From sequence record OQ689735.1: a stretch of 64,000 nt of DNA; one strand, written 5' to 3'. Position numbers and translations under genes: made by a program. Numbering within the stretch: the first letter of the stretch is position 1; every line of letters begins with the position of its first letter. Under the pieces are notes generated by a model, which saw nothing but the letters and a program-made list of their open reading frames with translations, ran no database searches and was not told the DNA's origin. Below, piece after piece: positions 3,390 through 5,549 of the stretch. This stretch comes from Escherichia phage 4E10.

Positions 3390-3435
3390 CTTATTTCCTG
3401 TTTTAATTCGTGGATTTAATATACTACTATATTTA

Positions 3436-3470
3436 TACCAAAAAGCCCCAACCTTTCGGTCGGGGCTAAG
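3436..3470 (-). terminator. rho-independent terminator at the end of the tRNA/stable-RNA operon
   Basis: 35-bp sequence identical to 2877-2911; hairpin plus U tract on the minus strand. Confidence 0.6.
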
Positions 3471-3518
3471 CCTTGCGGCAACCTTGTCGGGGTTCCACCT
3501 GCTAAGGCAAGTGTTTGT

Positions 3519-3610
3519 ACGAAACGCCGGGATTCGAACCCGGTTATTAAGCAGTTGACGCTACTCAATATTTTTAAAAGGCCATATCTCGACCATATCC
3601 GAACGTTCCG
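3519..3610 (-). ncRNA. tRNA-like stable RNA candidate at the distal end of the tRNA operon
   Basis: perfect T-arm (CCGGG-TTCGAAT-CCCGG) at 3527-3543 and a 7-bp acceptor-like pairing between 3604-3610 and 3520-3526, but no canonical D/anticodon arms; sits between the embedded ORF and the operon terminator. Confidence 0.3.
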
Positions 3611-3776
3611 TCAAAAACGCTACTCGACTTACGGCAAAGATATTTCCTCGAATCGATAATTCGGTGCGCCGTTTCTGCTGTGATGTAAGAGGGCATCAAT
3701 AAACGCAAAGATTATTAACGCAATTCCTTACTCAGGGAACATCAGTCCGACGACTTACCGGTAGCGACCCGGTTTC

Positions 3777-4127
3777 TTAATATTCTTTTAAAGCATCAAT
3801 CTGTTTACGGCGTTCACGCCATAAATCAATTGCTTCATACGCGGATTCAGCATTTCGAATTGGACGGCATTTATATAAAGACTTGTGATTTTGATATTGC
3901 GTAGATAACGGAATTTTATCTAAAAGGTCTTTACGTTCAAAGTATTCGTAACCATCTAAGCCAAATGAACGATTTTTGAGAAATTGCCAATGACCATATT
4001 CGTTTTCGACATAAACATAATCCGCGTGTTGATAAAGCAAATTAATTACACGTTCAGAAATAATAGTGTCATTGTGATTAAAATAAAATGTTAAATCATG
4101 AACTACTAAATAAACATTACCTTTCAT
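3777..4127 (-). CDS. hypothetical protein embedded in tRNA cluster
   Basis: 116-aa ORF, ATG 16 nt downstream of tRNA-Arg 3' end with GAGGAAAA SD. Confidence 0.5.
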   Translation of the reverse strand: MKGNVYLVVHDLTFYFNHNDTIISERVINLLYQHADYVYVENEYGHWQFLKNRSFGLDGYEYFERKDLLDKIPLSTQYQNHKSLYKCRPIRNAESAYEAIDLWRERRKQIDALKEY

Positions 4128-4143
4128 ATTTTCCTCACTTAAT

Positions 4144-4219
4144 TGGTCGAGGCAGTAGGGATCGAACCTACGACCTAGGACTTAGAAGGTCCTTGCTCTT
4201 CCTTCTGAGCTATGCCCCG
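4144..4219 (-). tRNA. tRNA-Arg (anticodon UCU)
   Basis: manual fold: 7-bp acceptor, D and T arms (GGTTCGATCC), anticodon loop CUUCUAA, CCA encoded. Confidence 0.8.
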
Positions 4220-4223
4220 TAAT

Positions 4224-4299
4224 TGGGGTGACCGATGGGAGTCGAACCCATGACTACGAGAATCACAATCTCGAGTTCTACCAACTGAACTACGGCCAC
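4224..4299 (-). tRNA. tRNA-His (anticodon GUG)
   Basis: manual fold: acceptor GUGGCCG/CGGUCAC, C73, anticodon loop UUGUGAU, T arm GGTTCGACTCC, CCA encoded; no encoded G-1. Confidence 0.7.
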
Positions 4300-4412
4300 A
4301 TTAATACCTACTCCAACAATCAAGATGTCTTCACACGAAATTAAGAGAAGAGTGATCAGTTCAACCCTATAATCGCGTCAAGTAGATATTAATGTGACAG
4401 TTGTCACAAATT

Positions 4413-4487
4413 TGGCGGACGTGATAGGATTCGAACCTATAACCAATCGCTTAACAGGCGATCGCTCTGCCATTGAGCTACACATCC
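4413..4487 (-). tRNA. tRNA-Asn (anticodon GUU)
   Basis: manual fold: anticodon stem ATCGC/GCGAT, loop CUGUUAA, T arm ATAGGTTCGAATCCTAT, CCA encoded. Confidence 0.8.
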
Positions 4488-4491
4488 AAAT

Positions 4492-4578
4492 TGGTGGGGA
4501 GTGATGGAGTCGAACCACCCGAGTCGCAATGACAATGAATTTACAGTCCACACCGCTACCTCTACGGGATAACTCCCC
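4492..4578 (-). tRNA. tRNA-Tyr (anticodon GUA), long variable arm
   Basis: manual fold: acceptor GGGGAGU/ACUCCCC, anticodon loop CUGUAAA, variable arm GUCAUUGCGAC, CCA encoded. Confidence 0.7.
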
Positions 4579-4591
4579 TTAATTCTTAATT

Positions 4592-4666
4592 TGGTGGCCC
4601 TGGGTGGAATTGAACCACCATCTGGCGATTATGAGTCGCTTGCTTGAACCTTCCAGCTACAGGGCC
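4592..4666 (-). tRNA. tRNA with CAU anticodon (Met, or lysidine-modified Ile as recalled for the T4 CAU tRNA)
   Basis: manual fold: acceptor GGCCCUG/CAGGGCC, anticodon loop CUCAUAA, T arm GGTGGTTCAATTCCACC, CCA encoded. Confidence 0.75.
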
Positions 4667-4667
4667 T

Positions 4668-4743
4668 TGGTGCTGATTGACGGAATCGAACCGCCGACCT
4701 TCTCATTACAAGTGAGTTGCTCTACCTACTGAGCTAAATCAGC
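4668..4743 (-). tRNA. tRNA-Thr (anticodon UGU)
   Basis: manual fold: acceptor GCUGAUU/AAUCAGC, anticodon loop CUUGUAA, CCA encoded. Confidence 0.8.
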
Positions 4744-4748
4744 AAAAC

Positions 4749-4838
4749 TGGCGGAGGCGATAGGATTTGAACCTATGAGTCGCCGGAGCGACTGCCGGTT
4801 TTCAAGACCGGTGCATTAAACCACTCTGCCACGCCTCC
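4749..4838 (-). tRNA. tRNA-Ser (anticodon UGA), long variable arm
   Basis: manual fold: anticodon stem CCGGU/ACCGG, loop CUUGAAA; 2 nt from tRNA-Pro, consistent with a dimeric precursor. Confidence 0.8.
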
Positions 4839-4840
4839 AG

Positions 4841-4914
4841 TCTCCATACAAGGATTTGAACCTTGGACCTCCTGATCCCAAATCAGGCGCTCTACCAAAC
4901 TGAGCTACACGGAG
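4841..4914 (-). tRNA. tRNA-Pro (anticodon UGG), CCA not encoded
   Basis: manual fold: anticodon stem CCUGA/UCAGG, loop UUUGGGA; 3' trailer is not CCA. Confidence 0.75.
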
Positions 4915-4924
4915 TAAATTAAAT

Positions 4925-4998
<74 letters not shown>

Positions 4999-5003
4999 AA
5001 ATT

Positions 5004-5090
5004 TGGTGCGAGAAGTGGGACTCGAACCCACAAGGAAATCATTCCGCAGCATTTTAAGTGCTGTGCCTTTACCAATTTGACCATTCTCGC
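5004..5090 (-). tRNA. tRNA-Leu (anticodon UAA), long variable arm
   Basis: manual fold: acceptor GCGAGAA/UUCUCGC, anticodon loop CUUAAAA, CCA encoded. Confidence 0.8.
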
Positions 5091-5091
5091 G

Positions 5092-5164
5092 CTGGGAATA
5101 AAGGACTCGAACCTTTGCATCCTGGAATCAAAATCCAGTGCCTTACCAACTTGGCTAATTCCCA
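5092..5164 (-). tRNA. tRNA-Gln (anticodon UUG), CCA not encoded
   Basis: manual fold: acceptor UGGGAAU/AUUCCCA, anticodon stem CUGGA/UCCAG, loop UUUUGAU. Confidence 0.75.
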
Positions 5165-5229
5165 ATTATTAACAAAGGCTCTCTAACAAGAACCCTTGAT
5201 GATAGAGGGTATTAATCAGTGCGATATGA

Positions 5230-5260
5230 GTTAATAATAACAAATAATTCTTAAAGCATA
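5230..5260 (-). promoter_or_regulatory. candidate middle (MotA-dependent) promoter for the tRNA operon
   Basis: minus strand ATGCTTTA (MotA box), 12 bp, TATTAT (-10), about 60 bp upstream of tRNA-Gln. Confidence 0.4.
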
Positions 5261-5261
5261 T

Positions 5262-5549
5262 TTACCATTTATGATGATACATACTTACGATGCATTCAAG
5301 ACCCAAAAGATTCTTGAAAATATCATATTCAAGAGGACCTTTTTCTGTTTCAATAAAGAAATCAAAATTTACTGTATTAAATTTACGGTCTTCCTTCACT
5401 AATTTAACCTGAGAAGATGAACGGTCAATGTAAACCTTTTCAACTTCAAAACATGTTAAAATGCCATAATCATCAATCAAGGCTTTAGCTGCTTCTTGAT
5501 CATATTTATATCCATTTTCAATGGATGATACTTTCGCATAAAGAATCAT
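5262..5549 (-). CDS. hypothetical protein
   Basis: ORF 5262..5555; track start is TTG, first ATG at 5549, immediately after the stop of the upstream gene. Confidence 0.5.
   Translation of the reverse strand: MILYAKVSSIENGYKYDQEAAKALIDDYGILTCFEVEKVYIDRSSSQVKLVKEDRKFNTVNFDFFIETEKGPLEYDIFKNLLGLECIVSMYHHKW

Follow-up and report, generated by a model that had tools for sequence, protein, structure and literature searches.

The locus at positions 3480-3776 raises the question of what a T4-like phage encodes at the end of its tRNA operon, in a stretch where no sizeable open reading frame (ORF) is found. It belongs to a window of 64,000 nucleotides, the whole stretch of DNA that was analysed, from a phage of the Tequatrovirus (T4-like) class. 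Using ARAGORN on the window, we located 11 tRNA genes on the minus strand, from 5164 to 4144, in the order Gln, Leu, Gly, Pro, Ser, Thr, Met, Tyr, Asn, His and Arg; neither a tRNA nor a tmRNA was called in 3480-3776. Nor did ARAGORN call a tmRNA anywhere else in the window. The first-pass annotation had described the stretch as free of ORFs and as lying between an ORF and the operon terminator, and both descriptions hold: there is no ORF of ≥60 amino acids, only ORFs of 34-50 amino acids, mostly with TTG starts, and the stretch is bounded by a 116-amino-acid ORF and by a strong intrinsic terminator. Pfam and PHROGs searches with both flanking ORFs returned matches limited to families without an assigned function. 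Megablast of 3400-4150 matched 738 phage records at 80-100% identity, nearly all of them Escherichia, Shigella or Yersinia T4-like phages (Tequatrovirus and relatives), and the region is contained in about 800 phage records. The parts of the locus, read along the minus strand, are the following.

4127-3777, minus strand: ORF of 116 amino acids, upstream flank, phrog_3355
3780-3663, minus strand: rnaD (species 2 RNA) ortholog, 118 nt, with ends transferred from the T4 annotation
3656-3518, minus strand: rnaC (species 1 RNA) ortholog, 139 nt, tRNA-shaped, with ends from the T4 annotation
3515-3471, minus strand: conserved 3' trailer, 45 nt, with hairpins CACUUGC/GCAGGUG, AACC/GGUU and GCC-GCAA-GGC
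3467-3444, minus strand: intrinsic terminator of the tRNA/small-RNA operon, with a 10-bp stem (7 G-C), a GAAA loop and a U run

The identity of the region follows from the T4 record (NC_000866), in which two minus-strand misc_RNA genes come immediately after tRNA-Arg: rnaD (‘small, stable RNA; species 2’, 71053-71171) and rnaC (‘species 1’, 70908-71046). The window aligns collinearly with T4 rnaD and then rnaC, likewise at the 3' end of the tRNA operon and before the terminator, with 116/119 identical positions for rnaD (97.5%) and 136/139 for rnaC (97.8%). By alignment and operon position, the stretch thus holds the orthologs of the two small stable RNAs of T4, a counterpart that the first-pass annotation had proposed as one of two options. 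It had also described a single tRNA-like element, in place of which we find two RNAs and a conserved 3' trailer. As the stretch matches annotated T4 genes, the finding is in itself already known. The species 1 and 2 RNAs of T4 have been known since the 1970s, and what is added here is a corrected acceptor pairing, a structural model that extends across genera and a probable kissing loop. We assign a probability of roughly 85% to the reading as a whole, in which the identity with T4 rnaC and rnaD and the conserved folds are shown, co-transcription, processing by tRNA enzymes and loop pairing are inferred, and a decoy role is speculative.

The two loci agree closely in their 3' parts. T4 rnaC lies on the same strand, in the same place (after rnaD and before trailer and terminator) and has the same predicted fold as rnaC of the window. 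Three substitutions separate the two sequences; mapped by hand onto the pair list, they correspond to U-G for C-G, a bulge base and U-G for U-A, and are predicted to be structure-neutral, with no functional difference expected. The trailer is conserved in T4, the terminator sequence is the same there, and trailer plus terminator are identical at 74/77 positions and fold together with z = -3.9. At 3467-3444, a G+C-rich hairpin is followed by a U run, as defines a Rho-independent terminator.

T4 rnaD likewise shares its conserved base and its apical hairpin with rnaD of the window, whereas the layout upstream differs. T4 rnaD begins 2 nt past tRNA-Arg, while in the window the 116-amino-acid ORF separates tRNA-Arg from rnaD; its stop codon (3779-3777) overlaps the T4-equivalent 5' end of rnaD, no tRNA abuts rnaD, and the first 4 nt of the RNA differ between the two phages. 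The 3' ends also differ, reading ...CACCG in the window and ...CACCA in T4, so that ...ACCA is encoded by T4 only. A further difference is that segB, part of the T4 layout, is absent in the window. The layout of the window is of the T2L type, for which genes of species I and II have been published (PMC2330249).

We then considered the fold of rnaC. Homologs were gathered from GenBank phages, IMG/VR and metagenomes, giving 35 unique sequences; a broad IMG/VR pattern scan returned mostly chance matches and was filtered by a T-arm rule, and the metagenome scan contributed at least three true homologs. The model, derived from the minimum-energy fold, was tested pair by pair on an alignment of 32 sequences. 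Its main elements are the following; a 3-bp helix (AGG/CCU) and an A/U-rich linker complete it.

3655-3649, minus strand: 5' strand of the acceptor stem, CGAUUCG, which pairs with 3526-3520
3648-3579, minus strand: P2, long hairpin in the place of the D arm, with the apical 6-nt loop UUGACG at 3614-3609
3570-3545, minus strand: P3, 10-bp hairpin in the place of the anticodon arm, with the 6-nt loop CGUCAA at 3560-3555
3543-3527, minus strand: T arm, CCGGG/UUCGAAU/CCCGG, with a 5-bp stem and a 7-nt loop
3526-3520, minus strand: 3' strand of the acceptor stem, CGUUUCG, followed by the discriminator U (3519) and ACA (3518-3516)

Across the 32 homologs, 89.8% of cells in the alignment form standard pairs under this model; shifting the 3' partners by 1-3 columns lowers the figure to 38-48%. 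More than half of the pairs (28/54) are changed on both sides, and in four of five measures 0/500 shuffles attain the observed value. The changes reach every arm. In the acceptor stem, pair 3 co-varies (A-U in 12 homologs, G-C in 20), while positions 4 and 5 are invariant U.U mismatches. P2 has 17/26 pairs (helices 2 and 3) changed on both sides, and its stem is wholly replaced in homologs from Gelderland-, Marfa-, Moon- and Kanagawavirus with the loop retained; in P3 the figure is 8/10. The T arm has 99.4% of its cells paired and co-varies at pair 3 (GC 15, UA 14, AU 1). Single-sequence minimum-energy folds give the same architecture in most distant homologs. A purpose-built covariance model, made from 18 homologs of other genera with no Tequatrovirus member, matches 3511-3658 on the minus strand at 135.6 bits (E=1.3e-32) and T4 rnaC at 139.6 bits, and finds nothing above 10.3 bits in the rest of the 64-kb window. 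The model thus shows rnaC as a tRNA-shaped RNA, in which the RNA ends form an acceptor stem next to a T arm and two long hairpins replace the D and anticodon arms.

This pattern of substitution also bears on the idea, suggested by ‘hypothetical protein’ features in several GenBank records, that one or several small proteins are encoded here. Short ORFs do overlap the RNAs, and in Klebsiella phage F48 the rnaC homolog has an annotated CDS of 45 amino acids over it. The predominance of TTG starts among the window ORFs speaks against such products, however, and the substitutions are paired or compensatory rather than codon-like. Any reading frame would moreover shift, because 1-base and 2-base indels separate the homologs. 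We therefore consider that the region almost certainly does not act through a protein product, and return to its reading as structured RNA.

How far, then, is rnaC a tRNA? The perfect T arm noted in the first-pass annotation is present, with its 5-bp stem and UUCGAAU loop on the minus strand at 3543-3527, adjoining the acceptor strand 3526-3520. Allowing ≤1 mismatch, the T-arm core GGTTCGAATCC has 9 copies in the window where 0.59 would be expected, and the other 8 copies are all in annotated tRNAs. As in RF00005 and class II tRNAs, the 7-position acceptor stem abuts a 5-bp T arm with a UUCGAAU loop; as in canonical tRNAs, a discriminator base is followed by CCA (in Marfavirus) or ACA, and in several genera the gene lies among tRNA genes. 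Unlike a canonical tRNA, rnaC is 139 nt long, has two invariant U.U mismatches in its acceptor stem and lacks both the D arm and the anticodon stem-loop; canonical forms of these arms were already found missing in the first reading of the sequence, and two long hairpins stand in their places. A non-canonical T loop (UGCAUCC, UGCAUGC) occurs in LC53, a Winklervirus homolog, and in several IMG/VR contigs that are unclassified.

The acceptor pairing required correction. The pairing of 3520-3526 with 3604-3610 that had first been proposed can form in the window (7 pairs, one of them G-U), but it is not the conserved one: it has 0 compensatory changes in 32 homologs, and it is 3655-3649 that co-varies with 3526-3520 instead. 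This distinction bears on the possibility that the 3' 91-96 nt of rnaC (3610-3520) form a class II tRNA, degenerate or unusual, or are the pseudogene of a tRNA, with the internal segment CGGAACG as acceptor strand and 3570-3545 as a long variable arm. The seven internal pairs exist in the window sequence, and ARAGORN calls an equivalent tRNA of 94-96 nt in two relatives, as tRNA-Lys(ttt) in G29 and tRNA-Phe(gaa) in KKP_3262, calls that are also found in GenBank. The best Rfam match of a tRNA type, a weak one, points the same way, being to tRNA-Sec at 3519-3611 with 16.6 bits (E=3.4), compared with a gathering score of 47. However, the called identities conflict with each other, ARAGORN makes no such call in the window, LC53, Melville or VPA32, and the T4 record labels the locus rnaC and not a tRNA. 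The RF00005 tRNA model gave no match in the region nor in any of five homologs tested. Internal pair 3 is broken in 18/32 homologs and pair 4 in 9/32, without compensatory change, whereas the terminal pairing co-varies, and the internal segment belongs to a local hairpin that itself co-varies. The degenerate tRNA suggested as a second option in the first-pass annotation is thus very unlikely, as what is conserved with compensatory changes in at least eight genera is a 139-nt RNA with an acceptor stem built on its distal 5' end. A scan with covariance models, proposed at the outset as a check, gave a divided answer: the purpose-built model supports a structured RNA, while Rfam tRNA models do not accept the region as a tRNA and Rfam holds no family for either RNA. 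The latter applies to the window at gathering thresholds and to the region plus four distant homologs at permissive E-values.

A tRNA-shaped RNA such as rnaC has parallels in tRNA mimics such as the tRNA-like domain of tmRNA, bacterial YrlA and the tRNA-like structures of plant viruses, in which an acceptor/T-arm module engages tRNA enzymes and the remaining RNA has another job. None of these shows sequence or covariance-model similarity to rnaC. The matches of the YrlA model fall only on true tRNAs and below threshold, and the two architectures differ in that the tRNA-like part of YrlA is internal, whereas the acceptor stem of rnaC is formed by the ends of the RNA.

The two hairpins that replace the D and anticodon arms carry loops that are exact reverse complements, UUGACG in P2 and CGUCAA in P3. 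This complementarity is perfect in 35/35 unique homologs, 29 of which have UUGACG/CGUCAA and 6 UUGGCG/CGCCAA, and the loop-loop helix is 100% paired in the pair count on 32 homologs. The Marfavirus loops (UUGGCG and CGCCAA) differ by a double change, from A-U to G-C. In Melville, PEi20, Ursula, Kosakonia 305, NM4.3 and VPA32, the loops are kept despite a replaced P2 stem, and in VPA32 the complementarity extends to 15 nt, with the minimum-energy fold favouring the long-range helix. These observations point to a probable 6-bp kissing interaction between the P2 and P3 loops, which we grade as probable and not proven because it rests on one independent compensatory event together with strong invariance. 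The two loops would pair within one molecule or between molecules. As both hairpins begin at one junction, P2 (~26 bp) must bend back to P3 (10 bp) for kissing within a molecule, and pairing between molecules, or an alternative pairing, is equally possible. The literature searched, which postdates the original papers of the 1970s, yielded no prior description of a kissing loop in rnaC.

Kissing complexes between hairpin loops are known from HIV TAR-TAR* and ColE1 RNA I-RNA II. Like these, rnaC has two loops, here of 6 nt, with full Watson-Crick complementarity; unlike these, both of its loops belong to one RNA and arise from one junction.

The same motifs could in principle act at the level of DNA, with the inverted TTGACG/CGTCAA pair or the T-arm motif serving as sites for a binding protein or a homing endonuclease. 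The recognition site of SegB spans 27 bp and includes the 11-bp T-psi-C motif found in tRNA genes (PMC2330249), a motif that rnaC carries exactly, and an inverted repeat survives a compensatory change in DNA just as it does in RNA. A DNA site would nevertheless leave unexplained why both 6-mers fall exactly in the loops of extensively co-varying hairpins, and the RNAs accumulate in T4 (PMC9697503). We consider sites in DNA an extremely improbable explanation of the conservation, and continue with a pairing in RNA.

For rnaD, a consensus was built from 18 unique homologs, all from E. coli-type T-even relatives, in which the conserved block begins at about 3778. Two hairpins make up the RNA.

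3773-3757, minus strand: P1 hairpin of rnaD, ACCGG/GUCGCUA/CCGGU, with stem and loop invariant except for the basal pair
3754-3664, minus strand: long irregular hairpin of rnaD, with P2, P3 and a variable apical hairpin

At the base of P1, the A-U pair is replaced by G-C in 2 homologs and by G-U in one other. P2 joins GUCGUCG (3754-3748) with CGGCG-C-AC (3671-3664) in an invariant 7-bp stem with one bulge and is therefore uninformative on structure. P3 is formed by UGUU with AGCA (4 bp), and its first pair is UA in 9 homologs, AU in 7 and UU in 2. The apical hairpin is variable and its stem pairs co-vary; in the consensus as a whole, 6 of the 24 predicted pairs are changed on both sides. The model shows rnaD as a predicted 5' hairpin followed by a long irregular hairpin, highly conserved at its base and variable at its tip. 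Inspected by eye for a tRNA-like minihelix, a K-turn and a loop-E motif, rnaD gave no convincing fit.

We also analysed how the two RNAs are distributed among phages. Among genus-assigned GenBank homologs, rnaC is found in at least eight genera (Tequatro-, Gapriver-, Winkler-, Karam-, Gelderland-, Kanagawa-, Moon- and Marfavirus), at differing positions within their tRNA clusters. It occurs alone, embedded among tRNA genes, in Winkler-, Karam- and Gelderlandvirus, typically flanked by tRNA-Trp and tRNA-Gly in the latter two, and lies downstream of a tRNA-Met in Marfavirus. Conversely, rnaD is present in the fetched loci of Dhakavirus-type phages and of Gaprivervirus VR20, in which the rnaC model finds no match; in phages without rnaC, as in the Dhakavirus-type loci, the trailer directly follows rnaD. 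On this distribution of sequences, rnaC and rnaD are independent modules.

Conservation of the region could alternatively reflect nothing but the recent common ancestry of T-even phages, the stretch being a non-functional 3' untranslated spacer. Such a reading has in its favour that the T4 tRNA region is not essential for phage development (PMC2330249) and that no function is known for the RNAs (PMC3014915). It accounts poorly, however, for an rnaC kept in eight genera at different positions of the tRNA cluster, with stems rewritten by compensatory changes around invariant loops, and for the independent occurrence of rnaD and rnaC and the stable RNAs seen in T4 (PMC9697503). An inert spacer is in our judgement extremely unlikely.

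Beyond phages, blastn against 5,426 complete E. coli genomes gave no match to the RNAs or to their motifs, and the RNAs are therefore not sequence mimics of a host RNA. Scanning 185,579 representative bacterial and archaeal genomes for the rnaC motif returned two matches, both rejected by the covariance model.

Expression of the RNAs is probably tied to that of the tRNAs. On the minus strand, late-promoter TATAAATA motifs near the cluster occur only at 5510-5503, upstream of the tRNAs, and at 3437-3430, past the terminator; between these, from 3438 to 5502, the minus strand contains none, and hence none lies between the tRNA genes and rnaD. Because of this lack of an intervening motif, we infer that transcription of rnaD and rnaC is probably shared with the 116-amino-acid ORF and the 11 tRNA genes.

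The shape of rnaC suggests how it might be released from such a transcript. Its acceptor/T-arm minihelix would allow the host tRNA machinery to excise and stabilise the RNA, with RNase P acting at the 5' end, followed by 3' trimming and CCA addition. At the 3' end, ACA follows the discriminator U in the window, T4 and most homologs, and GUACAA is conserved. In T4, several tRNA genes do not themselves encode CCA. The Marfavirus homologs of rnaC have U-CCA where a tRNA would end, an arrangement that matches the 3' end of a tRNA and that, as read from these sequences, fits maturation by the tRNA machinery.

What the two RNAs do has been an open question for 50 years. Searching the literature for any function or partner of rnaC or rnaD, or for a structure already published, yielded only statements that the function is unknown: a review says so of the T4 small stable RNAs (PMC3014915), and a 2022 omics study, which detects RNAC and RNAD of T4 at a late stage of infection and lists them among the late RNAs, says the same (PMC9697503). 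The latter study also reported Northern blot validation with an RNAC probe in T4-infected cells (PMC9697503). The T4 tRNA gene region has been described as not essential for phage development (PMC2330249).

A 2025 evolution study of the T4-like phage BW-1 points to a host-specific role. All three lines evolved on the semi-permissive E. coli strain ECOR34 had one SNP in common (PMC12685909); it was mapped to rnaD, and the study's measure of virulence, relative bacterial growth (RBG), went from 0.17 to 0.98 (PMC12685909). We do not think that rnaC and rnaD are decoding tRNAs. More speculatively, both may act as mimics or decoys that bind protein and in this way modulate a host-specific factor, such as a tRNA-directed defence or processing enzyme. 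In the most specific form of this proposal, to which we give only an outside chance, the arms of rnaC would be locked or dimerised through their loops and, together with rnaD, the RNA would be a host-range determinant that binds or decoys a host-specific, tRNA-directed factor, for example a defence nuclease. Were this host-range reading true, it would explain how, through one SNP in the rnaD region, a T4-like phage could overcome an E. coli strain that is semi-permissive. The comparative model offers mutants with which these ideas can be tested, in the acceptor stem with its U.U mismatches and in the hexaloops, and the modularity of rnaC and rnaD can be exploited in the same way.

A discrete stable rnaC of ~140 nt has been reported only for T4, by RNA-seq and Northern blot (PMC9697503).

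The region is blank in most deposited T4-like genomes and mislabelled in others, as ‘hypothetical protein’, tRNA-Lys or tRNA-Phe; some GenBank records label it rnaC.

In phages (loci L008, L044 and L046-L049) that lack rnaC, the gene for species 1 RNA, the trailer hairpin and the sequence downstream of it directly follow rnaD, which encodes species 2 RNA. On the basis of this arrangement, rnaC looks like a precisely bounded module that has been inserted or deleted.

Trailer hairpin of the window
within 3471-3515, minus strand: CACUUGC-loop-GCAGGUG

Homologs of rnaC lack annotation in most other public records, while three are mis-annotated: as tRNA-Lys(ttt) in phage G29 (L003:1678-1771), as tRNA-Phe(gaa) in KKP_3262 (L004:1547-1642) and as a 45-aa hypothetical protein in Klebsiella phage F48 (L050:1516-1653). 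In the homolog from Klebsiella phage VPA32 (L051:1504-1651), complementarity between the tip of the P2 hairpin and P3 extends to 15 nt, compared with 6 nt, with AAAGUAGUUGACGCU and AGCGUCAACUACUUU as the partners. The minimum-energy fold of this homolog favours a long-range helix over the P2 and P3 hairpins. A conformational switch is thus hinted at as a possibility.

The T arm of rnaC contains an exact 11-bp T-psi-C motif (3530-3540, minus strand), which is the conserved core of the recognition site of the homing endonuclease SegB (PMC2330249). As the tRNA region of the window carries no segB gene, rnaC might offer SegB a secondary target during mixed infections with T4.

Three further features lie within the tRNA operon.

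Features of the operon
3777-4127, minus strand: 116-aa ORF, phrog_3355 (unknown function), between a tRNA-Arg and rnaD
4300-4412, minus strand: 113-nt spacer from tRNA-Asn to tRNA-His
4492-4578, minus strand: tRNA-Tyr of 87 nt with a long variable arm, found by ARAGORN

The 116-aa ORF has no Pfam match; with its UAA stop codon at 3779-3777, it overlaps the T4-equivalent 5' end of rnaD. At the gathering threshold, Rfam recovered 10 of the 11 tRNAs that ARAGORN found in the window, and tRNA-Tyr was missing among its matches. The spacer, which contains no tRNA, ORF or Rfam match, has a predicted fold with a 13-bp closing stem (z = -2.95); 2 of 200 shuffled versions folded equally well. The same gap between tRNA-Asn and tRNA-His is present in phage G29. 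The spacer could yield a further processed RNA or act as a signal for processing.

A perfect 36-nt direct repeat (2876-2911 and 3435-3470), consisting of the terminator hairpin and its flanks, brackets a 559-bp cassette.

Features of the cassette
3437-3430, minus strand: late-promoter motif TATAAATA
3389-2916: 157-aa ORF, phrog_2280 (unknown function)

Whereas the window has two copies of the terminator repeat and the cassette, T4 has a single terminator and no cassette. This arrangement looks as if terminator duplication or recombination had inserted a gene.
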